64,000 nucleotides of DNA from an uncultured bacterium (GCA_964457585.1 CAYWFU010000006.1:8846-72845), one strand, 5' to 3'. Numbered from the stretch's first letter, positions 6,809 to 64,000 are shown. Program-made: numbers and translations. The notes: generated by a model not told the origin, from the sequence alone.

Positions 6809-8184
6809 ATATGTTTTTCGATACACATGTTCATCTAGATGATAATAAATATAATAATGATAGAGATAATGTAATAAATAGAGCTTTAAAAGAAGATGTA
6901 AATTTATTTTTAAACGCAGGAATAGATACTAAAAGCAATATTGAATCAATAAAATTAGCTGAAAAATATAGTTTTATATATGCGGCATGCGGATTTCACC
7001 CTCATGATGCTTCAAAATTCACTGAAGAAGATTACGAGATAATAAAAAAATTGATATCAAATGAAAAAGTTATAGGCATAGGTGAAATTGGGCTTGATTA
7101 TTACAGAAATCTTTCTCCGAAAAATATCCAGCAGAATGTTTTTAAAAGATTTATTAATCTGGCTAAAGAATCAAAAAAACCTATAATTCTTCATAGCCGT
7201 GATGCTTTTGATGACACAATCCGGATTTTAGAGGAAACAAATGCAAAAGAAATTGGCGGGATTGCGCATTGTTTTTCAGGAACAATTGATATGGCAAATA
7301 AATTCCTGGATATGAATTTTTATATTTCTTTTGCAGGACAGATAACATTTAAAAATGCCAGGAATATGAAGGAATTAATAGAGCAAATACCAATGGATCG
7401 CATTTTAATCGAAACAGACTGTCCATATATTAGCCCTGAACCACGCAGAGGATCCAGAAATGAACCTTCCTTTGTTAAATATACAGCTCAGAAAATAGCA
7501 GAAATCAAGCTTCTTTCAGCGGAGGATGTAGGGCGTATTACTAGAGTTAATGCAATAAAACTTTTTAATCTTCCTATAAGTTTAAATCCAGCAATAGTAT
7601 ATCCTATAAGGGATTCGATATATCTAAATATTACTAATCGCTGCAGTAATGATTGTTATTTTTGTATACGCACAAAACAGGACTATGTTAAAGGTCATAA
7701 TCTGCGAATAAGCAGTGAGCCAACATCAGCGGAAATTATTAAAAATGTGGAGCCGTTAATTAAAAAATACAGGGAAGTGGTATTCTGCGGTTATGGAGAG
7801 CCGTTATTACGGCTTGATACAGTACTTGAAGTAGCTAATGCATTGAGAGATAAAAGTGTAAAATATATCAGAATAAATACAAACGGACAGGGAAATTTAT
7901 TTTACAATGAGAATATTGTCCCGAAATTTAAAGAAATTATTGATGAAATTTGTATAAGTTTAAATGCTTCTGATAAAGAAGCATATATGAAGATATGTCA
8001 CCCGGAATTCGGTGAAAGAACTTTTGATGAAGTATTAAATTTTATAAAAGAATGCAAAAAGGTTATCCCGAAAGTTGTAATAACGTTTGTGGAATTGCCG
8101 GAAATAAATTTAGATGCTTGCAGAGCTATAGCGCAGAAGCTGGACGTAGCATATAAAATCAGGAAACTGGATGTAGTTGGGTGA
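6805..8184 (+). CDS. TatD-family nuclease fused to a TatD-associated radical SAM domain
   Basis: DTHVH, GEIGLDY and ETDCPY TatD motifs; C-terminal NITNRCSNDCYFC (CxxxCxxC) and VFCGYGEP. Confidence 0.9.
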   Translation: MNMFFDTHVHLDDNKYNNDRDNVINRALKEDVNLFLNAGIDTKSNIESIKLAEKYSFIYAACGFHPHDASKFTEEDYEIIKKLISNEKVIGIGEIGLDYYRNLSPKNIQQNVFKRFINLAKESKKPIILHSRDAFDDTIRILEETNAKEIGGIAHCFSGTIDMANKFLDMNFYISFAGQITFKNARNMKELIEQIPMDRILIETDCPYISPEPRRGSRNEPSFVKYTAQKIAEIKLLSAEDVGRITRVNAIKLFNLPISLNPAIVYPIRDSIYLNITNRCSNDCYFCIRTKQDYVKGHNLRISSEPTSAEIIKNVEPLIKKYREVVFCGYGEPLLRLDTVLEVANALRDKSVKYIRINTNGQGNLFYNENIVPKFKEIIDEICISLNASDKEAYMKICHPEFGERTFDEVLNFIKECKKVIPKVVITFVELPEINLDACRAIAQKLDVAYKIRKLDVVG

Positions 8185-8188
8185 TTGG

Positions 8189-8385
8189 TAAGCTTTCAGC
8201 CATCAGCTATCAGCTGTCAGCATTCAGTAAAAACATAGAAAAAACAAGGCGAAAACAAAACTTTTGATTCGATACATTTTTATTTCTGCATTTCAATATC
8301 TTTAAACTGATAGCTGAAAGCTGATGGCTGAACGCTTACCTTGCTTTTATTCTTTTAAGCTTTATAAACTGATGGCTGAACGCTT
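8189..8385. repeat. Inverted heptamer-repeat element (tcagcta-like / gctgata-like)
   Basis: aagctttcagccatcagctatcagctgtcagc ... ctgatagctgaaagctgatggctgaacgctta, with a second partial right end at ~8366-8385. Confidence 0.7.
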
Positions 8386-22237: not shown

Positions 22238-23619
<1,382 letters not shown>

Positions 23620-51847: not shown

Positions 51848-52372
51848 ATGTTAAAAAATGATATCGATAAAGAGGTAGAAGTCCGGACAGGAATAAATGT
51901 CTTCACCTGTTATCAATGCGGGAAGTGTTCTGCAGGATGTGTTTTTGCTCAATTTATGGATGCTCCTCCTCATTTACTCATGCGTTATTTGCAATTGAAT
52001 CTAAAAGAAAAAATTTTTTCATCCAATACTGTCTGGAGATGCGGAGCATGTATTACCTGTTCAGTAAGATGTCCTCGAAAAATAGATGTTCTTGCAGTTA
52101 TAAATACTGTAAGAACATTGATCACAGAGGAAAAAATATTTCCTCATGAAGAGGATGTGCATTTATTTGATGAAATTTTTTTAGATAATATTGCTAAAAA
52201 TGACAGACTCCATGAATTTGGGGCTGTATTTGATTTTAATCTTAAAAGCGGAAAATATTTTAAAGATATATCTCTTTTCCCAATTTTAATTGAAAAAGGA
52301 AAATTATCTTCTAAAAGTGAAAAAGGGCGTACTCAGAAAATTGCAGATGTAATAAATAAAATTAGGGATTAG
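51848..52372 (+). CDS. hdrC: Heterodisulfide reductase subunit C-like
   Basis: CYQCGKCSAGC and CGACITCSVRCP 4Fe-4S motifs. Confidence 0.88.
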   Translation: MLKNDIDKEVEVRTGINVFTCYQCGKCSAGCVFAQFMDAPPHLLMRYLQLNLKEKIFSSNTVWRCGACITCSVRCPRKIDVLAVINTVRTLITEEKIFPHEEDVHLFDEIFLDNIAKNDRLHEFGAVFDFNLKSGKYFKDISLFPILIEKGKLSSKSEKGRTQKIADVINKIRD

Positions 52373-52445
52373 GAAGTATAATGCAGTAAGTTAGTATTCT
52401 TATAAACTCTGACTCTTTGACTCGATTTTTTATAAAGGATTAATT

Positions 52446-53315
52446 ATGGAATATTCTTATTATCCAGGTTGTTCTCTTAAAGGTACAGCGCAAGATTATG
52501 AAGTATCAATTCAAAGAGTAGCTCTTAAGCTTAATATTAATCTTATCGAATTGCCTGATTGGGTATGCTGCGGCGCAAGCCCGACACATATTGCTAATGA
52601 GAAGTTAAATCTGGCAATTCCTGCCATTGATATTAAAGAAGCTTGCAAATATGAAAAAGATTTAGTAACTGTATGCACTGCCTGTTTTAATCGTCTAAAA
52701 ACTGCACATTATATTTTATTAAATAATCAAGTAAAGAAAAAAGAAATTGAATCTTTAATTGAAGGAAATATTTCTGACAAAATAAAAATTCGTCATTTTA
52801 TTCAAGTTTTAATGGAAGATATTAAACTTGAGCAATGGCAAACTTATATAAAAAAGTCATTAAGCGGATTGAAAGTTGCATGCTATTACGGATGTTTGCT
52901 TACAAGACCTGAATATATGATGGAAAATGAAAAAAGTGAAAATCCTGAAATAATGGATAATTTAATGAAAATTTTGGGTGCGGAACCAATTTCCTGGTAT
53001 TACAAAACAGAATGCTGCGGAACAAGCTTTGCGATATCTAAAACTGAAGTTGTTGTAAATCTATCTAATAGAATACTTGATGCAGCAAGTAATCATAAAG
53101 CAGATTGTATAGTTGTTGCATGTCCTTTATGTCATGCTAATCTTGATTTGCGTCAGATAGAAATAGATAAACATTATAATAAAAAGTATAACCTGCCTAT
53201 TTTTTATTTTTCAGAATTAGTTGCACTTGCGCTGGGGGAAGATTATAAAAATTTGGCTCTTGATAAACACATAATTGACCCCTTTTCGCTGCTGGAATCT
53301 AAAAAAATAATTTAA
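52446..53315 (+). CDS. hdrB: Heterodisulfide reductase subunit B
   Basis: YYPGC, CCGA, YYGCLL, CCG, CPLCHANLD (two CCG domains). Confidence 0.92.
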   Translation: MEYSYYPGCSLKGTAQDYEVSIQRVALKLNINLIELPDWVCCGASPTHIANEKLNLAIPAIDIKEACKYEKDLVTVCTACFNRLKTAHYILLNNQVKKKEIESLIEGNISDKIKIRHFIQVLMEDIKLEQWQTYIKKSLSGLKVACYYGCLLTRPEYMMENEKSENPEIMDNLMKILGAEPISWYYKTECCGTSFAISKTEVVVNLSNRILDAASNHKADCIVVACPLCHANLDLRQIEIDKHYNKKYNLPIFYFSELVALALGEDYKNLALDKHIIDPFSLLESKKII

Positions 53316-53333
53316 CTTGACATAGGAGTAAGC

Positions 53334-55298
53334 ATGAGAATTGGTGTATTTGTATGTCATTGTGGAACAAATATCTCAAAAGTAGTAAATATAAAAGAAG
53401 TAGTGGAAAATATGTCTACTTATCCTGGTATAGTTATTGCCAGTGATTTTAAGTATATGTGCTCAGAAGCAGGGCAAAAGCTTATTAAGGAAATGATTAA
53501 AAAATACAATTTGACCCGAATTGTTGTTGCTTCATGCACACCTAAACTGCATGAAATTACATTTAGACGCTGTTTGGATGAAGCTGGATTGAATCCCTTT
53601 ATGCTTGAAATAGCAAATATACGAGAGCAATGTTCATGGGTACATGCGGATAATCCTGTATTAGCCACACAAAAAGCAATAGATATTATAAGGATAGCTG
53701 TAGCTAAAATCCGTTTTGCCCAGCCCCTTACATCATCTAAAGTTACTATAGAACGAAAAGCACTGGTAGTCGGAGGCGGAATAGCAGGGATACAATCTGC
53801 AATAGATATAGCTCAAGCAGGTTATCCTGTGGTATTGGTAGAACAAAGTCCGTCTATAGGCGGTAGAATGGCGCAATTGGATAAAACTTTTCCAACTCTG
53901 GACTGCTCTGCGTGTATTCTTACTCCAAAAATGGTAGAAGTTAGCCGTCATCCATCCATTAGAATTTTAACATATGCTAAAGTTGAGGAAGTAAAAGGGT
54001 ATGTTGGTAATTTTGAGGTTACTATCCGAATAAAAGCGCGTTCAGTTGATATGAAAAAATGTACAGGATGCGGTATATGTCAGACTAAATGTCCGGTTAA
54101 GGTAACAAGTGAATTTAATGAAGGCATATCCAAAAGAGCAGCAATATATGTCCCTTTCCCTCAAGCTTCGCCAAATGTCCCTGTGATTGATAGAGAAAAA
54201 TGCAAGTTTTTTTTGGATGGTAAATGCGGTTTATGTAAAAAAATATGTCCTTCAGAAGCAGTTAATTATGAAGAGCAGGATACAATTATTAAAGAAAAAT
54301 TTGGAAGTATTATTATGGCTACAGGATTTGATTTATTTGATCACAGCGTTTATGGAGAATATGGTTATGGAAAAATAAAAAACGTAATTAACTCTATTCA
54401 ATTTGAAAGAATGGTAAATTCATCCGGTCCAACAGATGGACTAATAGTTAAACCTTCGGATGGCAAAGAAGTAAGGAAAGTTGTATTTATTCAATGTGTA
54501 GGCTCACGTGATGACAAAGTCGGAAAGCCGTATTGCTCAAAGATTTGCTGTATGTATACAGCAAAACAGGCGTTACTTTTAAAAGAACATATTCCACAGG
54601 CTGAAGCATATGTATTTTATATTGATATAAGAGCTGGCGGAAAAAATTATGAAGAATTTATCAAGCGGGTACAGGAAAATTATAGAGTAAAGTATATACG
54701 CGGAAGAGTATCAAAAGTTTTGGAAAATAATGATAAATTAATAGTTAGGGGATTTGACACTCTCTCCGGTATTTCAATGGAAGTTGAGGCTGATTTAGTG
54801 GTTTTAGCTGTTGGAGTTGTCCCGCGCAAGGATTCAGACGAAGTTGCTCGTATTTTTAATGTTTCCCGTGATTCCAATAAATTCTTGGCAGAACTGCATC
54901 CAAAGCTGGCTCCAGTTGAAAAGAATACAACAGGGATATTTTTAAGCGGCAGTTGTCAGTTCCCCCGCGATATACCTGATTCTGTTGCAATGGCTGGAAG
55001 TGCGGCAGTGAAATCCTTGTCAATTTTTGCTAAAGAATTTTTGACATCAGACCCGATGATAGCTCTTGTTAATCCATCAATATGCACAGGCTGCATGAAC
55101 TGCAAAACTATATGTCCATATAAAGCTATTCTGGTTGATGAAATTAAAGACCTGGATGGGAAAATAAGAAAAATAGCAAAAGTAAACGAAACAGTCTGCA
55201 GAGGCTGCGGTACCTGCGCTGCAACATGTCCTTCTCAATGTATTAATCTCAGGGGATTCACCAATGAACAGATTTTCGCATCAATAGAAGCGTTGTAA
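53334..55298 (+). CDS. hdrA: Heterodisulfide reductase subunit A
   Basis: RIGVFVCHCG, NIREQCSWVH, GGGIAG, LDKTFPTLDCSAC, CCMY, ferredoxin motifs. Confidence 0.95.
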   Translation: MRIGVFVCHCGTNISKVVNIKEVVENMSTYPGIVIASDFKYMCSEAGQKLIKEMIKKYNLTRIVVASCTPKLHEITFRRCLDEAGLNPFMLEIANIREQCSWVHADNPVLATQKAIDIIRIAVAKIRFAQPLTSSKVTIERKALVVGGGIAGIQSAIDIAQAGYPVVLVEQSPSIGGRMAQLDKTFPTLDCSACILTPKMVEVSRHPSIRILTYAKVEEVKGYVGNFEVTIRIKARSVDMKKCTGCGICQTKCPVKVTSEFNEGISKRAAIYVPFPQASPNVPVIDREKCKFFLDGKCGLCKKICPSEAVNYEEQDTIIKEKFGSIIMATGFDLFDHSVYGEYGYGKIKNVINSIQFERMVNSSGPTDGLIVKPSDGKEVRKVVFIQCVGSRDDKVGKPYCSKICCMYTAKQALLLKEHIPQAEAYVFYIDIRAGGKNYEEFIKRVQENYRVKYIRGRVSKVLENNDKLIVRGFDTLSGISMEVEADLVVLAVGVVPRKDSDEVARIFNVSRDSNKFLAELHPKLAPVEKNTTGIFLSGSCQFPRDIPDSVAMAGSAAVKSLSIFAKEFLTSDPMIALVNPSICTGCMNCKTICPYKAILVDEIKDLDGKIRKIAKVNETVCRGCGTCAATCPSQCINLRGFTNEQIFASIEAL

Positions 55299-55650: not shown

Positions 55651-55752
55651 GTTTTATAGCCAGAATTTACAACACCTACTTTATATAAATATATATTGCA
55701 CTATTTCAATAGATGGTTTCAATCCTTGTTTTAATGGATTTTACAAACCTAC
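55651..55752 (-). CRISPR. Minimal CRISPR array: one intact 37-bp repeat, one 36-bp spacer, one degenerate repeat
   Basis: gtttcaatccttgttttaatggattttacaaacctac (55716-55752; ends ATTGAAAC on the minus strand); the preceding degenerate unit ends ...tttacaacacctac at 55679. Confidence 0.7.
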
Positions 55753-56149: not shown

Positions 56150-56722
56150 TCACACGCAAATGTTTCTATAGCAACAATCAATACATTTATTTTGATATTT
56201 TGTTTTTTTAGGATAGAAACCCTTAAGTATCACATCAAAAATTTCTTTTACTATATCTTTAGTATAACAAAAATCCTCATCATTGTATATAATTTCTTTT
56301 AATTTATTGCCGGTTTTAGTATAACATATAAAACCTTTTTTTACAGGTTTATTATAATTTTCTTCAATTAATAATGCATATAATACAGACTGAATTTTGT
56401 ATGTTTCATAAGTGAATTCATTATATTCAGTATATTTATAATCCAGAGGTGCAAGTGTTCCGTCATCTAAATACAAAACTTCATCAATTACTCCTCTTAC
56501 ACCTAATTTTTTAGATGCAATATAAACGGAAATTTCCTTATTAACACATCCTATTTTTTTTCGTAAATAGTCTTGATTTTCGGTTTCTCGTCTTTCATGC
56601 AAAGACCTGCCTTTTAAAACTTTGTATCTTAATTCCTCATGTTGCGGGATATTCAAGCAATTCATAAAGTATGTAAAACGCGGACAGAAAAGATGCTCAA
56701 TAACTTCTGATGGTGTTATCAT
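56150..56722 (-). CDS. cas4: CRISPR-associated exonuclease Cas4
   Basis: MITPSEVIEHLFCPRF, GVIDEV, PLDYK, Q...YALL, CIDCCY..IC; ATG at 56722 preferred. Confidence 0.92.
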   Translation of the reverse strand: MITPSEVIEHLFCPRFTYFMNCLNIPQHEELRYKVLKGRSLHERRETENQDYLRKKIGCVNKEISVYIASKKLGVRGVIDEVLYLDDGTLAPLDYKYTEYNEFTYETYKIQSVLYALLIEENYNKPVKKGFICYTKTGNKLKEIIYNDEDFCYTKDIVKEIFDVILKGFYPKKTKYQNKCIDCCYRNICV

Positions 56723-56799
56723 TGGAGTTGATTCAGTGTCAAATTTAGTGTAAGTGTAAGTGCAGGTGGAAGTATTGATTGAACTATTATTAATTTTGT

Positions 56800-56967
56800 T
56801 CACCTCTTTCTATCTAAAGAATTAGCTAATCCCATTAGCATACGGCTAATTTCTAAAATTTCCTTTTCAATTTCTTCATATATTTCAGATGAAATATATT
56901 TCAAATCTTTGGATAACATAAGCTGATATTTAAGCTCTGAAATGGAACCTCTTGCTATCCCCAACAA
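56800..56967 (-). pseudogene. C-terminal half of a four-helix-bundle (23S rRNA IVS / TIGR02436-like) protein
   Basis: LLGIARGSISELKYQLMLSKDLKYISSEIYEEIEKEILEISRMLMGLANSLDRKR*; flanked by inverted hexamer runs at 56747-56774 and 56968-56999. Confidence 0.75.
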
Positions 56968-57974
56968 ACTACACTTTCACTAACACTTTCACTTACACTG
57001 CTTTTAATCATCTCATTCGCAATTCTATGACAATCAAATTGAATAATATTATCGCGTTTGATATTCCTGCCATTATATCTAATAGACTCATCCATAAAAG
57101 CTGTAAATTCAGTTATTAACCCTGCTTTGCCATTTTTATTTAAAGTCAGTCCATTTGGTATGTTATCGAAATATTCAACCTTAACTTTTCTTCCGGCAAA
57201 CATATTTACTACAATTTCATCTGCCCAGATACGATAATTTTCAATTAAGTCGAATACTAATGATTTTTTGTTATAATGGTCAGTATGAATAAAACCGACA
57301 TAAGGATCAAGACCGGCTATAATACATCCCTTTTCAACTTTTGAATAAAGTATTCCATAAGCATAATTTAATAAACAGTTGAATTCATCCTTTGCTGGAT
57401 TTCTGCTTCTACCATTAAATTTAAATCTATCCGGCATAAGAAAACTCAGTGCATCAAAATAAATTCTACCGCAGCTACCTTCTATTCCCATAATAGATGC
57501 TCTATTTTCTTCAAGTGTGCCGGACAAAGACTGAAGTCCGAGAGCAGCATTTTCTAATTTATTAATATATTCAGTAATTTCCGCAGATTTTTGAGGACGT
57601 GTTTCTCTTAAGCGTTTTATTAAATCAATTTGATTGTTGAGTTTAGTTTTTATCCATTCCAGCGCAAGCTTAAATCCTTCTTCTATTTCACCTATTTCTA
57701 ATTGTTTACGACGTATAGCTGTTGTGCTGCCAAGCTTTGGATGCCAGACTCTGCCATAAGGATCGCCAAATTCATCAATGAACACAATGTCAATATTATT
57801 TTCCATTGCCATTTTAATTGCATCTGTGGTGATGTATGCGGCAGTTGATATGAGGATTGATGATATTTTTTTGCAGGAGATTTCAGAAATTTTATCATCT
57901 ACTTTTATTTTAAAACAATCGCCGTTTTTCTGTAAATATGAGCCATAAGAATTAATTACGAGTTGCATGGTCAA
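56955..57974 (-). CDS. cas1: CRISPR-associated endonuclease Cas1
   Basis: GIEG..GRIYF, R.R.PAKDEFN.LLNYAYGILY, GLDPYVGFIH, SLVFDLIE.YR. Confidence 0.95.
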   Translation of the reverse strand: MTMQLVINSYGSYLQKNGDCFKIKVDDKISEISCKKISSILISTAAYITTDAIKMAMENNIDIVFIDEFGDPYGRVWHPKLGSTTAIRRKQLEIGEIEEGFKLALEWIKTKLNNQIDLIKRLRETRPQKSAEITEYINKLENAALGLQSLSGTLEENRASIMGIEGSCGRIYFDALSFLMPDRFKFNGRSRNPAKDEFNCLLNYAYGILYSKVEKGCIIAGLDPYVGFIHTDHYNKKSLVFDLIENYRIWADEIVVNMFAGRKVKVEYFDNIPNGLTLNKNGKAGLITEFTAFMDESIRYNGRNIKRDNIIQFDCHRIANEMIKSSVSESVSESVVCWG

Positions 57975-58007: not shown

Positions 58008-59291
58008 TTATAAATTCAACAACCATTTCCACAGCGGGATAAATTCTATACTGAATTCTTTTTTCTCTGTGTCTTTTGTTATCAAAATCAACCTTTTTGC
58101 CTGAGGAAAATGTTGTTGGAATTCCAGAAGAGACTTAATCTCCCTATCATCAATATCGTTTGTAAAAGATACATTTATTGCCCACAAACCATCATTGTCT
58201 CTTATCACAAAATCAACTTCTCCTTTGTTTTTCCAATAATAAATTTCATTACACTGTTTTATCAATGTATTTCCTACCAAATTTTCGGTTAATTTTCCCC
58301 TGTCTTCCGAGAATTTGAAAGCTACAGCGTTTCTTAAGCCATTATCAATACAAATAATTTTTCGTGGATTAACTGTCTGGGTTTTTAATGAATAAGAAAA
58401 TTGCGGATTGAAATTTATATATTCCGTTTCCTGAATAAAAGAAAGATACTCTCCAATTGTATCCCTTGAAACCGGAAAATTTTGTTTTACAATATTATAA
58501 TAAGAGTTAACCGAGAATAAAGAAGTTACATTTGTTAAAATATATTTTAGAAGGCTAAACAAAACTTCTGTATTCCTCAAAGAAAATCTATCACTCAAAT
58601 CTCGATATACAAGAGAATCAAAATATTCACTCAATATTTTTTTCTTTAAAACATCATTTTTTTCTAAAATAACTTCAGGAAATCCCCCAAATTGAATATA
58701 TTCATCCAACATTTTTTTGATTTTAAATCTTTCAGGAGAATATTCAATATTTTTCACCAGAGCAATCCCATTAAATTTTAAAAATTCTCCGAAATTTAAA
58801 GGATATATCCCAAAACTTAAAGTTCTGCCCCGTAAGGAAGTGGCAATTTCCTTGCTTAAAAGCTTTGAAGAAGAACCTGTAATAAATATTTTTATTTTTT
58901 CTTTATCATATATTCTTCTTATAAATATTTCCCAATCTTTGATGTTTTGTATTTCATCAAAAAAAACAAATATTTCTTTACTTTTATTTTCCGGATAAAG
59001 CTCAAAATAAGCGTCCCGTATTAATCCCAATTCTTTAAAATTAATAGGAAGGATTCTATCATCTTCGAAATTCAGGTATAAAATTCTATTTTTTGAAACA
59101 CCTTTATTTATTAAATCATTTATTAAATCATAAAAATAAAATGTTTTCCCGCTTCTGCGCGGGCCATAGATAGTAATAATTTTATTTGTGGATAAAGGAA
59201 TTTTCATATCTCTCTTGAATGTCTCAGGAAAGACGGATGTATGAAATTCATTTATCAAATATTTAAAATCTTCCTTTTTACTCAAAATCAA
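58008..59291 (-). CDS. AAA+ ATPase (AAA_14/DUF4143-type)
   Basis: GPRRSGKT, FFDEIQN, ITGSSS, GGFPEV, EVDF. Confidence 0.88.
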   Translation of the reverse strand: MILSKKEDFKYLINEFHTSVFPETFKRDMKIPLSTNKIITIYGPRRSGKTFYFYDLINDLINKGVSKNRILYLNFEDDRILPINFKELGLIRDAYFELYPENKSKEIFVFFDEIQNIKDWEIFIRRIYDKEKIKIFITGSSSKLLSKEIATSLRGRTLSFGIYPLNFGEFLKFNGIALVKNIEYSPERFKIKKMLDEYIQFGGFPEVILEKNDVLKKKILSEYFDSLVYRDLSDRFSLRNTEVLFSLLKYILTNVTSLFSVNSYYNIVKQNFPVSRDTIGEYLSFIQETEYINFNPQFSYSLKTQTVNPRKIICIDNGLRNAVAFKFSEDRGKLTENLVGNTLIKQCNEIYYWKNKGEVDFVIRDNDGLWAINVSFTNDIDDREIKSLLEFQQHFPQAKRLILITKDTEKKEFSIEFIPLWKWLLNL

Positions 59292-59446: not shown

Positions 59447-59848
59447 TTATATCCATTCTATCTCAATTAAATTTTTAACTAATTTAAATTCAGGATCACC
59501 TGTAATAACTATAGCATTTTCACGAATAGCTGTAGCAACAGCAAAACAATCAGCATAAGAAATAGGATGATTTGCTTTAATCCTGGAAGCATCTATAATT
59601 TGGTTAAATGAATTAGATATAATTTCTATAGGAAGATTGGGAAGAATCGTTTCAATAAAATATTCAGCCTGCCCAATTCCTCTTTCTCTAGCAATAATAT
59701 AATAAATTTCCCCTACATTAATTTCGTTAATTATAATAGAACAATCTACAGGTGCTGAAGCTAAAATTTCCATTACCTTTTGATAATTATCTTCTTTTTT
59801 TAGATACGTTAGAAGTGCAAATGAGTCGAGTAATATTTTTCTCTTCAA
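59447..59848 (-). CDS. VapC PIN-domain toxin
   Basis: LDSFALL, INVGEIYY, SYADCFA, TGDPEF. Confidence 0.88.
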   Translation of the reverse strand: MKRKILLDSFALLTYLKKEDNYQKVMEILASAPVDCSIIINEINVGEIYYIIARERGIGQAEYFIETILPNLPIEIISNSFNQIIDASRIKANHPISYADCFAVATAIRENAIVITGDPEFKLVKNLIEIEWI

Positions 59849-60074
59849 GCTCTGTTTCCTCCTTTCGTTCTTTCAGAAGTGCTTTTGTAAGAGACGAACC
59901 ATTTTTAAAAATACCACAAAATGATTCAACAGGGTTTTGAGGTAACGGAATAATTTCTGCATGATCTTTAACAACCTTCAAAAATACTTTATGTTTTGGC
60001 TTTATACCAAGGGCATCACGTATCTTTTTAGGCATAACAATTTGTCCTTTAGATGACACAGTTACCGTAGACAT
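59787..60074 (-). CDS. AbrB/MazE-fold antitoxin
   Basis: VTVSSKGQIVMPKKIRDALG. Confidence 0.88.
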   Translation of the reverse strand: MSTVTVSSKGQIVMPKKIRDALGIKPKHKVFLKVVKDHAEIIPLPQNPVESFCGIFKNGSSLTKALLKERKEETELEEKNITRLICTSNVSKKRR

Positions 60075-60221: not shown

Positions 60222-60890
60222 TTAAAGACACCTATCAAACTTTATCGTTCCAAACCCACGCGATACTGATTTGCCAATGCCCCAATAATCCGGGATTTCG
60301 AAGTTAACGGAGAATGTGCCGAGAAAGCCGAGCATGGGTGTGCCTTTTAAATACACTTGTATTTCTTCTAAAGCTAACGAGTTTATGATTATTTCCTTTT
60401 CTACGATATATCCTAAACTTTTTGAAATACTTAATAAATTACCCACCAAGATATTTGCTAAAAATATATCTTTATTATTTCTATTTTTAATTTTATTATA
60501 TTCACTATAATTTTTTTCATTAAGTGCAAGCCATGGTTTTTCAAAATGATATTTAATGATACAATCTGCAATTCCAAAATTTACTTCTTCACTTATTAAT
60601 TGCTTTTGAATAATATTATATTTTTTTTCTTTTATTTCAAAAATCTTAAGAACAGGTTCAATTGTACGAATTATAGAAGTTCCTTCTTCTATACCTATAA
60701 TTAATCCTTCTCCTTTTATAGTCCTATATTGAATTCTTGGATAAAGGTATAAAAGATTCCCATCTTTTTTGTGGTTATGAAGTATATCATATTGAGGAAA
60801 TTGGCTGGCAATATTTCCTCTAAGCGTATTTCCATGACAGGATAATGTCGGATCTGTTTTTGTTTTTAAAATTGTTTGCTGGATGATCAT
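60222..60890 (-). CDS. cas6: CRISPR-associated endoribonuclease Cas6
   Basis: LHNH...LYLYPRIQY, PWLALN..NY, ILVGNLLS, C-terminal GIGKSVSRGFG loop. Confidence 0.9.
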   Translation of the reverse strand: MIIQQTILKTKTDPTLSCHGNTLRGNIASQFPQYDILHNHKKDGNLLYLYPRIQYRTIKGEGLIIGIEEGTSIIRTIEPVLKIFEIKEKKYNIIQKQLISEEVNFGIADCIIKYHFEKPWLALNEKNYSEYNKIKNRNNKDIFLANILVGNLLSISKSLGYIVEKEIIINSLALEEIQVYLKGTPMLGFLGTFSVNFEIPDYWGIGKSVSRGFGTIKFDRCL

Positions 60891-61456
60891 TGAATTATCA
60901 CCTTAAGAATTTCTTCCCCTTTTAAGACTTGTGCTTTCGCAATATTATTTACAAAATCAGGATATGTTTTTATAAATTGTAAAAAACCTGTTTTTGAATA
61001 TACGCTTAAATCTAATTTTTTCATTGAGTATTTAGTTAATATTTCTCCCCTGCTTATTTTATCTCGTGTTACTGCTAATAAATCAACATCACTTAATTTA
61101 TCATTTGTCCCTTTTGCTGAAGAACCATAGTAAATCAGGATTAAAACAGAATTGTCATTCTTTAAATTAGTTATGATTTCTTGAATTGATAATATATTTT
61201 CTTTTTTATTTTCAGCAAAAAGATTTTCAATATCGCTACATGTTTTGAAAAATAATTCTGATAACATTGTTTGTTGAATATAGTAAAAATTAGGTTTACC
61301 TGTTTTTTTTCGTAACAAATTAACAGAAATTAATTTACCTAAAATTTTTATTACAGTCTTTTTAGAAATTTCGGTAGAATCAATGAGATTTTTAATCGTT
61401 ACTTCTTTACTTTTTTTAAAAAAGTTACTTCCAATTTTGATGATAGATGATTGCAA
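60887..61456 (-). CDS. wHTH plus minimal nucleotidyltransferase (MNT) domain protein
   Basis: N-terminal HTH-like segment; YGSSAKG....SDVDLL Pol-beta motif. Confidence 0.8.
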   Translation of the reverse strand: MQSSIIKIGSNFFKKSKEVTIKNLIDSTEISKKTVIKILGKLISVNLLRKKTGKPNFYYIQQTMLSELFFKTCSDIENLFAENKKENILSIQEIITNLKNDNSVLILIYYGSSAKGTNDKLSDVDLLAVTRDKISRGEILTKYSMKKLDLSVYSKTGFLQFIKTYPDFVNNIAKAQVLKGEEILKVIIQ

Positions 61457-61505
61457 TAAAAGATTTTTAATTTCTGTATTATTTTTTGATATAAAAAGTA
61501 ATTTT

Positions 61506-61961
61506 TCATTGGTTAGAAAGCTTATATTCTTCGCTATTTTTTTCTATAAAACAACTTTTTTCAAGATATAATAAGTTAAGATTAATGCAATCTTTGGAAT
61601 AATTTTCCAGTTCCATTACGATTTTTTCTTTACACATTGGTTGATTATAAAGAATATTTAAAATTTGGAAAAAAACTAAAGTTTTGTCCAGAGGTTCTTC
61701 TCCCTTCAATTTTTTCCCAATACATTTTTTAAATTCATCAACTATTTCATTGTTAACATTTATTTGTGATTCATTTAATTCAGATCTTTCAATTATCTTT
61801 TGAAATCTATGACCATAAATTTCATGCTCATCTGAATCAGTATCACAATATAATATTTGATGAACTTTTTCTTGTATTCTCTGACTCTCTGCTTTTGGGA
61901 TCTCTTTTGATCTTTTCCTCACAAGTCTCAATAGCCCTTTCAATTTTTTCAATAAATCCAA
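61506..61961 (-). CDS. Hypothetical protein with a C-terminal winged-helix-like segment
   Basis: ILNILYNQPMCKEKIVMEL....LLYLEKSCFIE; start uncertain, overlaps the upstream ORF. Confidence 0.5.
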   Translation of the reverse strand: MDLLKKLKGLLRLVRKRSKEIPKAESQRIQEKVHQILYCDTDSDEHEIYGHRFQKIIERSELNESQINVNNEIVDEFKKCIGKKLKGEEPLDKTLVFFQILNILYNQPMCKEKIVMELENYSKDCINLNLLYLEKSCFIEKNSEEYKLSNQ

Positions 61962-62922
61962 GAATTTCAGTTTGGTCTATATGAATATTTTCACCTTTTG
62001 AAGCTAAGCGAATATTTTCAAATCCTTCTATTTCTCTTAATGCAGAGTTTAATCGTTCTTCACCTGAAATCCCAATTAAAAAAAATTTAATAGAATAAAC
62101 TACCCTTAACATATGTAAAATTAAATATGCTCTATCTTTTAATGTTAAAGAAACATCTTTAGCTTTCTGTAATCCCGGTTTTAAATCATTAAGTCTGTTA
62201 AGTAATTCATCCGCATCATAATTAATATAACGAGAAGGTACTGCAATAAATTCCACATGGTTACTTTCCCTTATTTCATAAGTATCTTCTACAAAAGCAT
62301 TATCAACTATTGGATATGGGAACATTCCGATCATCACTCCACGTTTAACTTTTGAAACTAAAGGGTCTACCGGATGGTTAACATATTGATTTGGAACTAT
62401 TCCGTGTATATATTTTTCCTTCCCAATTAAAAGTTCTGCTTTACCTCTGAAACTGCCAAGTCTTATGTAATTTGGAAATTTTTCGAGAATATCATTATTT
62501 AAATGTAGATAACCGTTAAATATTGTTTCAGGCAGCAATGAAAATATTCTATATGCTTTTAAGACTTCGTTTCTGCCAATGCTTTTCCCTAATATTTTAG
62601 CAATTCCAAATCCCGGTTGAATGAAATAATCCATATCCCCTTTAATTGTTTCAACTATATATTCAATTTTTCCTTCAATAGAAGCTGGAGTAAAATAAAA
62701 ATCAGGTTCAATCCATGAATGCTCATATCTAGGGATATTTCGGCCTCCGCCTTCATCACTAATAACATATGATTGATCATCCCTTACTCTTCCCATGCAC
62801 CAAGATACTGCATGGTTAATAGCAGTTGCATGCAGATATATTTGTGTATATGCGCCCGAAAGAGCTTCTTGTGAATAAAAAAGCGGGTCAATGAGTTTTA
62901 TTATATAAGGATAAACTCGCAT
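61843..62922 (-). CDS. csc1: Type I-D Cas5d/Csc1 with a ~128-aa C-terminal extension
   Basis: PLFYSQE...YLHATAINHA, IRLGSFRGKA, HPVDPL; directly downstream of csc2. Confidence 0.75.
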   Translation of the reverse strand: MRVYPYIIKLIDPLFYSQEALSGAYTQIYLHATAINHAVSWCMGRVRDDQSYVISDEGGGRNIPRYEHSWIEPDFYFTPASIEGKIEYIVETIKGDMDYFIQPGFGIAKILGKSIGRNEVLKAYRIFSLLPETIFNGYLHLNNDILEKFPNYIRLGSFRGKAELLIGKEKYIHGIVPNQYVNHPVDPLVSKVKRGVMIGMFPYPIVDNAFVEDTYEIRESNHVEFIAVPSRYINYDADELLNRLNDLKPGLQKAKDVSLTLKDRAYLILHMLRVVYSIKFFLIGISGEERLNSALREIEGFENIRLASKGENIHIDQTEILGFIEKIERAIETCEEKIKRDPKSRESENTRKSSSNIIL

Positions 62923-63768
62923 TTACTCTTCTCCTTCTTGTCCTTCTTCTTTATTTTCCTGTGTTTTTTCTTTAGGTTTTTTATCTTTTTTGGGAGCACG
63001 CTTATCAATTAATTCTTTGAAAATAGCTGGAATTTGGGTATTCAATGTAGTATATGATGTTTCAACTGCCGGCAGCCCTGACAGTATAGTAATATCGTTT
63101 GAGATTGATGAAGTTTGTAATAAATTATAAATGCTCAAATTTTCTCTATCCGATAATTCAGCATGTAAAATATTTGTTTCAACGCGTCCCCATTCCACGC
63201 TTCTAGCGCCGATTCTTGTTAATCTTTTTAGGTTATCAACTATAATTGATGCCATTTCTTTTGTTGGATCTTTTATTGTTACAACACCTCTGAAAACTGT
63301 TTCTTTTGGAACGGTAAGGATTGTCATTAAAGCTTGTCCCGTCATTAAATCTTTTTCACCAACAGCATTCTGAGTATAATTTTCTACTCCTTTAACTTCT
63401 TCGGTTGATATAAAAGTTTCACCAAGAACACGGGATAAAATATTATATGAAACTTTGCTTGAACTGGTTTCGCCTGTGCCTCCAAAGAGTAAACAAGAAG
63501 GGCAATTAAGACATAAGTCATCTTTAAGCGCACAATTAGATTGAATGTTTAATTGCCTCTGTTTTTCCAGAACTAATCTCCTTAATTTCCCTTTTACTTT
63601 TCGCCATGGAATTATGAATCTGTTTTCAATAGATTTGTAATGATGAGTTAAAACTTCTTCAGCTTCATTACTGCGAATAATCGCATCATCCAATAATTTA
63701 ATCTCAATAAGCAATTGCAGATATATACCTTTACTTAATAATGATGGTGTTTCAAGAAAATTAACCAT
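62923..63768 (-). CDS. csc2: Type I-D Cas7d/Csc2
   Basis: RK.KGK.RR, C..C..CP.C.LFG, SRV..E.FIS, RIGARS...G; AAGGAGG RBS before the ATG at 63768. Confidence 0.8.
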   Translation of the reverse strand: MVNFLETPSLLSKGIYLQLLIEIKLLDDAIIRSNEAEEVLTHHYKSIENRFIIPWRKVKGKLRRLVLEKQRQLNIQSNCALKDDLCLNCPSCLLFGGTGETSSSKVSYNILSRVLGETFISTEEVKGVENYTQNAVGEKDLMTGQALMTILTVPKETVFRGVVTIKDPTKEMASIIVDNLKRLTRIGARSVEWGRVETNILHAELSDRENLSIYNLLQTSSISNDITILSGLPAVETSYTTLNTQIPAIFKELIDKRAPKKDKKPKEKTQENKEEGQEGEE

Positions 63769-64000
63769 TGACAACCTCCTTTATGTTTGGATAACGTTTT
63801 AATAAATATATTGATGACAGAAGCGCATTCTTGGTTTGAATGAAAGCTGAAATGTCATTCTGTCTGAGATCAAAATATCTCTTTAATATTTCTTTGGTTT
63901 TTTCAACAAAAGGTTTTAGATCTGAAACATCAACTTTTGCTATTGAATCCTCTTTTGTTTTATCTCCTGAAATATTTTCCTTAATTAAAGATAAAAATTT
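63761..64000 (-). CDS. 3' end of the gene upstream of csc2, probably Cas10d/Csc3 (partial)
   Basis: 80 open codons ending ...KEVVNG* and overlapping the csc2 start; helical composition; position expected for cas10d. Confidence 0.55.
   Translation of the reverse strand, partial: KFLSLIKENISGDKTKEDSIAKVDVSDLKPFVEKTKEILKRYFDLRQNDISAFIQTKNALLSSIYLLKRYPNIKEVVNG

Follow-up and report, generated by a model that had tools for sequence, protein, structure and literature searches.

A candidate type I-D CRISPR-Cas sub-variant with a winged-helix nucleotidyltransferase cassette split between Cas5d and a neighboring gene

Comparative analysis of a type I-D locus from an uncultured bacterium points to a conserved sub-variant that captured a nucleotidyltransferase (NTase) cassette in split form, in which the winged-helix (wHTH) NTase probably docks on Cas5d as a control device tethered to Cascade; we give this reading a probability of about 60%. 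The locus lies in a stretch of 64,000 nucleotides, referred to here as the window. At the level of sequence comparison, homology of all three parts of the cassette, an exact split point, strict co-occurrence with a long form of Cas5d, and purifying selection were shown. The original prediction had offered two explanations for the long Cas5d, namely a new I-D variant that physically couples Cascade to an MNT/HEPN-like module, or an accidental in-frame fusion. The first is supported, as the Cas5d extension and the NTase are homologous to the two halves of stand-alone proteins, with the domain split suggesting the physical coupling.

The effector operon and the long form of Cas5d

All genes of the I-D effector operon are encoded on the minus strand. 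The 3' end of cas10d (63767..64000), the last 78 codons of a gene that exceeds the window, was recognized by tblastn with Kuenenia Cas10d (aa 782–859, 85% identity, E 4e-33). It is followed by cas7d (Csc2, 283 aa, 62923..63774; PF18320 E 6.5e-24 and TIGR03157 E 2.1e-24, both above the cut-off), the long form of cas5d (Csc1, 359 aa, 61843..62922), a gene for a small protein S (61506..61922), a truncated wHTH-NTase gene termed ORF189 (189 aa from a TTG codon, 60887..61456), and cas6 of the Cas6b type (222 aa, 60222..60890; PF17955 E 1.4e-23, PF17262 E 6.1e-39). The gene cas3' lies outside the window and was found in the loci of relatives. As predicted, ORF189 overlaps cas6 by 4 nt on the minus strand. 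Two inserted genes on the same strand had also been expected and are present; the anticipated overlap between them is replaced by a gap of 49 nt between S and ORF189.

The Cas5d core comprises aa 1–230 (62233..62922, minus strand) and is common to the short Cas5d proteins of 240–250 aa (alignment A1), the alignment of which is confined to the first 63–65% of the window's Cas5d, with a core identity of 45–55%. TIGR03159 (Csc1) matches aa 9–219 only (E 1.4e-9, 37.7 bits against a cut-off of 41.4), the Cas5d models of PADLOC extend over the same residues (E 3.6e-10), and the solved Cas5d structure 7SBA_H is matched by the family profile (E 2.6e-5). Homologues are labelled Cas5/Csc1 by NCBI and JGI. 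The end of the Csc1-like part near residue 231 and the helical stretch behind it had thus been placed correctly. The protein closes with the tail SSSNIIL (61846..61866, minus strand), which aligns with the ends of short Cas5d proteins (GSSLII or alike; alignment A1), and no tail of this type was found at the C-termini of the stand-alone NTase proteins described below. In these alignments the helical module behaves as an insertion ahead of a conserved C-terminal tail, and not as a plain C-terminal extension. The canonical I-D Cas5d (Synechocystis, 7SBA chain H, 254 aa) shares the core of aa 1–230, the position between cas7d and cas6, and the hydrophobic tail. In contrast, the long form adds a helical domain of approximately 110 aa ahead of this tail, and S and an NTase with two winged helices are always encoded between the long-form cas5d and cas6.

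The module spans aa 232–345 (61888..62229, minus strand). An AF2 model of the ~130 aa past the core was predicted to contain six helices (pLDDT 81.5). Neither Pfam, PDB (searched with profiles A2 and A8), and PADLOC nor the PDC-M05B and HEPN models gave a significant sequence match to it. Foldseek searches with the insert alone returned 2hsb (TM 0.51–0.53, probability 0.72) and, in the top list, the HEPN entries 8yuf, 8xdj, 8xeh, and 7ae6, along with HEPN-MNT complexes; every E-value was above 0.3. Of the suggestion that the extension is HEPN-like, the helical nature was borne out by the AF2 model, while a HEPN fold is weakly supported, by Foldseek matches with E >0.3 and a TM of about 0.5. 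The canonical RNase motif Rx4-6H, reported as missing from the extension at the outset, was found in none of more than 50 Cas5d inserts and in none of the stand-alone domains. Only two residues, R273 (codon 62104..62106) and R305 (codon 62008..62010, in the motif IRLASKG; both minus strand), are invariant across the inserts and the stand-alone helical domains (alignments A2 and A8). No insert or stand-alone domain carries a histidine at positions +5 to +7 from R305.

Relationship to a stand-alone archaeal cassette

In an exhaustive HMMER profile search of 1.84e9 proteins, the module was restricted to Cas5d and to proteins of the P0134 type, with P0134 itself being matched at aa 275–365 (E 3.6e-5 in 1.84e9 proteins). 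These archaeal proteins (P0134, P0137–P0152) are found in Thermoplasmata and Altiarchaeota, do not adjoin cas genes, and belong to a cassette of two genes. The first gene encodes a protein of 370 aa with two winged helices, a Pol-beta NTase domain, and, at the C-terminus, a helical domain. The second is S, which overlaps the end of the first gene in the +1 frame. Direct comparison of the Cas5d insert with the stand-alone C-terminal domain by hhalign gave a probability of 98.2% (E 5e-14). These profile comparisons identify the Cas5d extension as a homologue of the helical domain that closes the single-chain wHTH-NTase proteins.

The remaining part of the single-chain protein has its counterpart in the gene downstream of cas5d. 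The Kuenenia NTase orthologue and the stand-alone protein P0143 were aligned by BLASTP with an E-value of 9e-22, and on sequence grounds the NTase encoded downstream corresponds to the N-terminal part of the stand-alone wHTH-NTase proteins. The CRISPR-linked NTase proteins stop 5–8 aa past the motif KILKGxDhL, and in the stand-alone proteins the helical domain starts exactly there. As the NTase ends where the stand-alone helical domain starts, and the helical half resides in Cas5d, the I-D loci hold the cassette in a split and permuted form. All three parts are homologous, and the +1 overlap of S is common to both contexts. The two versions differ in that the archaeal protein is a single chain encoded away from cas genes, whereas in the CRISPR version the helical domain lies inside Cas5d.

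ORF189 matched PF18765 with 30.0 bits (cut-off 26.9) and PF01909 with 28.0 bits (cut-off 21). Together with these profile matches, it carries the motif hG[GS]-x9-13-Dh[DE]h of Pol-beta/minimal NTases, here as GSS-x9-D-V-D at aa 111–125 (61082..61126, minus strand). The motif is kept in all CRISPR-linked and stand-alone homologues, and GS and DxD are invariant in every homologue aligned. A third acidic residue is usual in NTases. At this position D, H, Q, or E occurs among the homologues, so catalysis is not certain. The NTase also matched the PADLOC defence candidate PDC-M05A (E 6.8e-9 for ORF189; range 5e-10 to 7e-9), and the MntA model gave an E-value of 1.2e-4, below the cut-off.

For S, the open reading frame extends from 61506 to 61961. 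The GTG codon at 61922 is the likely start by comparison with homologues, which begin with M-x-ARKRS, and gives a protein of 138 aa. The gene is read in the +1 frame and overlaps the 3' end of cas5d by 80 nt. The C-terminal part of S is wHTH-like, and apart from this faint resemblance no match was found in Pfam, PADLOC, or PDB. A profile HMM built from S proteins of CRISPR loci only matched the small ORFs of the stand-alone cassettes with 51–56 bits.

The stand-alone proteins seem to be like the two-domain enzymes of the KNTase/LinB type, although this fold match is weak. In Foldseek searches, the model of a stand-alone protein (pLDDT 73.8) aligned with 1KNY, 6P01, 6NMK, and 3JYY over 233–256 columns of targets of 252–266 aa with probabilities of 0.99–1.0, at E-values from 8e-3 to 2e-2 (all >1e-3) and weak TM scores of 0.23–0.33 (0.26–0.33 for KNTase). 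In ANT(4') (1KNY, 6P01) and LinB (3JYY), too, a Pol-beta NTase at the N-terminus is joined to a helical domain at the C-terminus, and the Foldseek alignments cover both domains of the stand-alone protein. The helical domain of KNTase was among the founding members of the HEPN family. Unlike the proteins studied here, these enzymes are devoid of winged helices; the I-D loci, in turn, show no resistance context and distribute the two domains over two proteins.

Distribution, exchange, and decay of the cassette

The search for further Csc1 proteins with the same extension and the same downstream genes was successful. The long form is present in 57 of the 120 top-ranking clusters of homologues (38–75% identity), and S and the NTase, or remnants of them, accompany it in all 17 long-form loci examined and in none of 19 short-form loci. 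The 17 loci span at least eight bacterial and archaeal lineages, with representatives from Nitrospirota, Thermodesulfovibrionia, Kuenenia/Jettenia, Desantisbacteria, Thermodesulfobacteriota, Riflebacteria, Wallbacteria, and Aenigmatarchaeota. The gene order cas3'-cas10d-cas7d-cas5d(long)-S-2xwHTH-NTase-cas6 is found in the Logan, Kuenenia, and Aenigmatarchaeota loci. Intact loci include Ca. Kuenenia SOET01000016 (L002) and Aenigmatarchaeota JAGLVB010000012 (L003). Between bacteria and archaea the cassette is conserved at 40% identity, and the dN/dS values of insert, S, and NTase range from 0.11 to 0.36; by this measure the module is under purifying selection. Judging from their arrays of 29–35 repeats, the relatives look active. 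One of two signs named beforehand for an accident, a match between the extension and the end of an MNT-type gene that stands alone, was indeed found; the other, the lack of any second genome with the fusion, did not apply. Since the fusion is common to many genomes, the match to the stand-alone tail reflects evolutionary origin and not an accident.

In a rough neighbor-joining tree of the Cas5d core, long forms were interleaved with short forms. The loci L042 and L044 show a mosaic of synonymous divergence, with a dS of 0.53 for the core and 0.009 for the NTase, and this mosaic shows that the module has recently been exchanged among loci. A single acquisition followed by vertical descent is not supported by the interleaved tree and the dS mosaic. 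Deletions or frameshifts in the module were found in 3 of 17 loci, the window included, so the module is dispensable in at least some hosts. One locus (L012) has lost the NTase and kept the long Cas5d.

The window's own copy is one of the damaged ones. Alignment of the DNA with two intact relatives (L001 and L002) revealed a deletion of ~279 nt with its junction at 61518..61519, which shortened both the S and the NTase genes. Lost are the final part of S, the spacer between the two genes, which holds the NTase start codon, and ~65 codons of the NTase gene, which encode wHTH1. Consequently, S is devoid of its last ~12 codons, and ORF189 keeps the second winged helix and the NTase domain of proteins that have two winged helices and 269–290 aa in intact relatives. 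Contigs from two groundwater-metagenome runs (X1 and X2) span both the core/insert and the deletion junctions without differences. In place of a CRISPR array, for which no tandem repeat copies were found within the window, there is a single orphan repeat, GTAGGTTTGTAAAATCCATTAAAACAAGGATTGAAAC (55716..55752, minus strand), which shares an identical 18-mer with the Kuenenia repeat. A cas2 gene was sought in the window and none was found. The module is eroded here, and the locus as a whole seems to be in decay.

Neither a 2023 review of I-D biology nor the 2025 CRISPR-Cas classification describes this variant, and it is likewise absent from the main text of a 2023 survey of rare variants. A supplementary entry of that survey, UAS-163 (nucleotidyltransferase and HTH), might be an earlier sighting; its IMG contig was not among the matches of the metagenome scan.

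Possible roles of the split cassette

Upon capture, the helical domain would have been placed in Cas5d just ahead of the C-terminal tail, S would have retained its overlap with the end of the helical domain, and the NTase with two winged helices would have become a protein of its own, ending precisely at the former domain boundary. By Rosetta-stone logic, the wHTH-NTase may dock on the helical domain of Cas5d via the ancestral intramolecular interface. Cas5d is located at the base of the I-D Cascade, adjoining Cas10d (PMC9123187). The docked NTase would accordingly sit at the Cascade foot, next to the 5' handle of the crRNA, Cas10d, and the PAM-proximal DNA, where GS and DxD of the NTase together with R273 and R305 of Cas5d could rebuild a composite active site. 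The most likely role would be a nucleotidyl-transfer activity that depends on Cascade, with the Csa3/CasR-like winged helices coupling DNA binding or cas expression to Cascade's state; a role of the module as RNase toxin is less likely.

Pure transcriptional feedback, in which the wHTH-NTase and S regulate the cas operon without catalysis and are titrated by the helical domain of Cas5d, deserves consideration as an unlikely alternative. A free regulator would then report the amount or state of Cascade. Such a role would be in line with the resemblance of wHTH1 to the winged helix of Csa3/CasR (PADLOC E 7e-9 to 3e-8), the variable third acidic residue of the NTase, and the frequent presence of a regulator in type I-D loci (PMC10212523). 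A precedent is Csa3b, a CRISPR-associated winged-helix regulator that works with Cascade in type I-A (PMC5389559), but in that system no domain is fused to Cas5, and Csa3b has a CARF sensor instead of an NTase. Against catalytic inactivity stands the strict conservation of GS and DxD in every homologue and of the two arginines of the helical domain, which argues for a retained active site.

We consider it improbable that the cassette is a passenger with no CRISPR role which spreads among I-D loci by recombination and subsequently decays. The lesions, the dS mosaic of L042 and L044, and the lack of monophyly of the long forms are what such a passenger would leave behind. Yet its position in the effector operon is constant and one half is part of an essential Cascade subunit, and neither the purifying selection nor the conservation between bacteria and archaea fits this explanation.

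In MntA/HepT (type VII toxin-antitoxin systems), an NTase antitoxin AMPylates a HEPN RNase toxin. By analogy, the HEPN-like domain of Cas5d could be a toxin or abortive-infection effector restrained by AMPylation by the NTase. The pairing of NTase and HEPN is typical of MntA/HepT and of PDC-M05, described as an NTase and HEPN pair (PMC12988326), both of which encode a (w)HTH-NTase beside a HEPN-fold partner, and HEPN-MNT structures are among the weak Foldseek matches. In the I-D loci, however, this partner lacks the Rx4-6H motif and forms part of a Cascade subunit, and sequence similarity is limited to the NTase half (PDC-M05A at E 7e-9, and MntA below the cut-off). Moreover, the stand-alone ancestors hold both domains in one chain, as do KNTase-type enzymes, and the long Cas5d of L012 persists after loss of the NTase, which is unexpected for a toxic protein. 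A toxin-antitoxin function is thus quite doubtful.

Very little speaks for the helical module being a relocated Cas11-like small subunit, beyond its size of ~110 aa and its all-helical nature. Cas11d is normally produced from within cas10d, and the length of Cas10d is alike in loci with short (852–856 aa) and long Cas5d (860–881 aa). This equal length and the lack of any Cas11 structure among the Foldseek matches speak against this origin, and the module's homologues are all linked to an NTase. That the in-frame fusion arose by accident or is an artefact of assembly, a reading for which the nearby deletion in the window might be invoked, is refuted by the 57 homologue clusters of the same architecture, the long form and downstream genes shared by 17 loci in at least eight lineages at dN/dS values of 0.1–0.36, and the agreement of independent contigs, and has practically no probability left.

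The captured, Cascade-docked cassette remains our preferred reading. A more specific and speculative version of it, which we regard as improbable in its full detail, is that the split NTase is complete only on Cas5d, and that target binding activates it at the PAM-proximal foot, where it would nucleotidylate either a protein or the end of a nucleic acid, or produce a nucleotide signal. In the usual view, type I effector complexes are DNA-binding platforms that merely recruit Cas3, and enzymatic signalling is a feature of type III Cas10. If true, this version would provide a type I counterpart of the latter, derived from an archaeal NTase/HEPN-like cassette.

Cascade subunits with inserted domains are known from Cas5-HNH in I-E2 and Cas8-HNH in I-F4 (PMC10910872, PMC12669027), where a foreign domain within a Cascade backbone subunit similarly marks a rare sub-variant. 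The I-D insert differs in being the non-nuclease half of an enzyme, the other half of which is a separate protein, and in the retention of Cas3' and Cas10d. Those enzyme-grafted Cascades turned out to be mechanistically new and useful as tools. With one half of an NTase in Cas5d and the catalytic half encoded beside it, the I-D loci lead to the testable prediction of a Cascade-tethered enzyme or regulator. They also represent a clean natural Rosetta-stone case, in which an NTase/HEPN-like cassette, widespread in archaea and related to the defence candidate PDC-M05, is tied to CRISPR immunity.

Organization of the I-D operon and its long Cas5d

The window ends in the 3' part of a type I-D effector operon on the minus strand. 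It holds the last 78 codons of cas10d (63767–64000, 85% identity to the Kuenenia protein), cas7d/Csc2 (62923–63774, above cut-offs in Pfam and NCBIfam), cas5d (61843–62922, 359 aa), a small ORF termed S that overlaps the cas5d 3' end (61506–61961), a 189-aa nucleotidyltransferase (NTase) ORF (60887–61456), and cas6b (60222–60890, profile match), all on the minus strand. TIGR03159, the Csc1 model, and PADLOC's Cas5d models recognized Cas5d over aa 9–219 only; the Cas5d family profile also matched the solved Synechocystis Cas5d (7SBA_H). The original prediction, that the Csc1 region stops well before the ORF does and that an HTH-nucleotidyltransferase gene overlapping cas6 lies within the operon, was thereby borne out: the 189-aa ORF encodes a winged helix (wHTH) and a Pol-beta/NTP_transf_2 domain above cut-off, carries a GSS-x9-DVD motif, and shares 4 nt with cas6.

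A protein search returned 238 Cas5d homologues. Among the 120 best clusters, 57 represent a long form (310–382 aa) aligned over its full length at 38–75% identity, and 63 a short form (235–288 aa) with the alignment confined to the first ~64%. The terminal SSSNIIL of the long forms aligns with short-form tails (GSSLII, SPSIIV, and similar), and on the basis of this short motif the additional ~110 aa would be a module inserted ahead of a Cas5d-specific tail. Six helices were predicted for it (AF2, pLDDT 81.5), and in the module alignment R273 is invariant and R305 near-invariant (Cas5d numbering). The canonical Rx4-6H motif, already missed in the single sequence, was absent from the alignment of Cas5d inserts, which excludes a catalytic HEPN RNase. 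Contigs from two groundwater-metagenome runs covered the junction of core and insert without differences.

Two further elements are inserted between cas6 and cas1, a PIN (VapC-like)/MazE-AbrB-like toxin-antitoxin pair (59447–60074, minus strand) and an AAA_14 + DUF4143 ATPase (58008–59291, minus strand). DUF4143 ATPases also occur within the Aenigmatarchaeota I-D locus, which hints at a recurrent association. The heterodisulfide-reductase-like genes at 51848–55298 (plus strand), Fe-S/CCG-domain proteins and a 654-aa HdrA-like flavoprotein as judged by eye from the translations, are ordinary metabolic neighbors of the CRISPR locus. Elsewhere, at 22238–22265 and 22303–22330, two copies of a perfect 28-nt palindrome, GTAGAGACGCAAAATTTTGCGTCTCTAC, lie 65 nt from each other.

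A cassette shared with stand-alone archaeal genes

A Logan contig, Ca. Kuenenia, and an Aenigmatarchaeota MAG all show the order cas3'-cas10d-cas7d-cas5d(long)-small ORF-2xwHTH-NTase-cas6. For a census, species-representative genomes and JGI metagenomes were scanned and the loci classified by HMMs. In 17/17 long-form loci (Nitrospirota, Thermodesulfovibrionia, Kuenenia, Desantisbacteria, Thermodesulfobacteriota, Riflebacteria, Wallbacteria, Aenigmatarchaeota, and unclassified organisms), S overlaps the 3' end of cas5d and the NTase gene comes immediately downstream, or remnants of these genes are present. Neither gene was detected by the HMMs in any of 19 short-form loci, where cas6 directly follows cas5d. 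The size of Cas10d is alike in the two kinds of locus (852–856 vs. 860–881 aa), which speaks against reading the module as a relocated Cas11. Given arrays of 29–35 repeats in the relatives, the variant looks like an active adaptive system there.

No match to the helical module was found in Pfam, PADLOC, or PDB sequence searches. When 1.84 billion representative proteins were searched exhaustively (HMMER) with a profile of the insert, only 15 matched: long Cas5d proteins or pieces of them, two repetitive proteins, and P0134, a stand-alone archaeal protein, with its fragments. P0134 (370 aa) has a pair of winged helices followed by an NTase domain and, at the C terminus, a helical domain matching the Cas5d insert (E 3.6e-5, whole library). 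Profile-profile comparison of the insert with this type of C-terminal domain gave 98.2% probability (E 5e-14, 91 columns); R273 and R305 were the only residues invariant across Cas5d inserts and stand-alone helical domains. The family comprises ~370-aa proteins from Thermoplasmata, Altiarchaeota, and other archaea.

In three long contigs, no cas genes adjoin the stand-alone genes, and the NTase gene is followed in the +1 frame, with a 32-nt overlap, by a gene for 90–133 aa. These small genes scored 51–56 bits with an S HMM built from CRISPR loci alone and are evidently homologous to S. Their frame relation to the upstream gene is identical in both contexts: the start of S invariably lies within the 3' end of the helical-domain gene, in the three stand-alone cassettes as in all long-form loci, where the overlap is 23–89 nt. 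For the CRISPR-linked NTase, homology covers the first 260 aa of the stand-alone proteins (BLASTP 9e-22), and the protein ends 5–8 residues past KILKGxDhL, the exact start of the helical domain in the single-chain proteins. By these homologies, the whole cassette is present in the I-D variant as helical domain, S, and 2xwHTH-NTase, an order that is a circular permutation of the stand-alone one. It may have arisen when a tandem duplicate lost its ends and became fused to cas5d.

Decay, selection, and exchange

Compared to two relatives (L001 and the Kuenenia locus L002), ~279 nt are missing in the window, with the junction at ~61518/61519 (within 61457–61523) covered by contigs of two metagenome runs. 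The deletion removes ~12 codons from the end of S, the intergenic region, and the NTase start with ~65 codons (first winged helix), leaving TTG at 61456 as the only start of the remaining frame. No cas2 was found anywhere in the 64-kb window. Its place in the relatives is taken, between cas1 (56955–57974) and cas4 (56150–56803), by a 55-aa C-terminal fragment of a 23S-rRNA-IVP/four-helix-bundle gene (56800–56967, minus strand); in Kuenenia, two full copies of genes of this kind surround cas1. Downstream of cas4, a single orphan 37-nt repeat without spacers (55716–55752, minus strand) lies where the relatives have 29–35, so the array has collapsed. Independent lesions were found in two other loci: in L012, a ~1.1-kb deletion (8078–8190) took out most of S and the NTase gene and spared the long Cas5d, and L015 (6986–9051) has a shortened insert (Cas5d of 314 aa) and an NTase gene split by a frameshift. 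Judging from these three loci, the module appears dispensable in some hosts, and the damaged copy in the window would be the wrong choice for experiments.

For pairs with unsaturated dS, dN/dS was 0.11–0.15 in the Cas5d core, 0.25–0.36 in the insert, 0.24–0.33 in S, and about 0.25 in the NTase. Purifying selection thus acts on insert, S, and NTase, somewhat less strongly than on the core. Between loci L042 and L044, dS fell from 0.53 (core) to 0.20 (insert), 0.07 (S), and 0.009 (NTase), a pattern that points to recent exchange of the module by recombination, the breakpoint lying within cas5d. Furthermore, a rough NJ tree of the Cas5d core split the long forms among at least five clusters, with short forms interleaved, and a ~25-aa core insertion is common to one long-form cluster and short forms. 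From the dS mosaic and the interleaved tree, the module seems to move among I-D loci through recombination; the alternative is its repeated loss.

Fold and possible function

The AF2 model of P0134 (pLDDT 73.8) gave two groups of Foldseek matches: tandem winged-helix proteins (ScpB, RPC62), and ANT(4')/kanamycin nucleotidyltransferase (1KNY, 6P01, 6NMK, 6UN8) with LinB (3JYY). The latter spanned both domains (233–256 columns of 252–266-residue targets; probability 0.99–1.0, E ~1e-2, low TM). The insert alone gave weak matches (all E>0.3), with HEPN prominent (2hsb, TM 0.51–0.53) and HepT toxins and a HEPN-MNT complex included. The wHTH-NTase matches the PADLOC candidate PDC-M05A (E 5e-10 to 7e-9); PDC-M05, an NTase with a HEPN-domain protein, is an untested, archaea-enriched candidate (PMC12988326). 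Taken together, the original description of the module as NTase-associated and HEPN-like seems reasonable.

The active site of KNTase-type enzymes is formed in part by their helical domain. This domain was lost from the CRISPR-linked NTase and gained by Cas5d, and conservation is strict for both the catalytic GS/DxD and the two arginines, which suggests that the NTase protein docks on Cas5d; the enzyme would then be complete solely on Cascade. We consider docking with a composite enzyme or regulator the likeliest explanation (probability roughly 0.6), the remainder being shared by a pure titration of the regulator, a toxin-antitoxin-like module, and a passenger cassette.

Neither the Cas5d-helical fusion nor an NTase within I-D operons is described in the I-D review (PMC10212523), the I-D Cascade structure paper (PMC9123187), the 2025 classification with rare variants (PMC12669027), or the main text of the FLSHclust survey (PMC10910872). 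The supplement of that survey lists "UAS-163 (nucleotidyltransferase + HTH)", 4 clusters, among toxin-antitoxin-like CRISPR-linked genes, which might be an earlier sighting of the module.

The first winged helix of the wHTH-NTase resembles that of Csa3/CasR (PADLOC). Together with the small wHTH protein S, this likeness suggests a device that would couple Cascade to DNA binding or cas regulation, as a winged-helix regulator tied to Cascade, Csa3b, does for I-A (PMC5389559).
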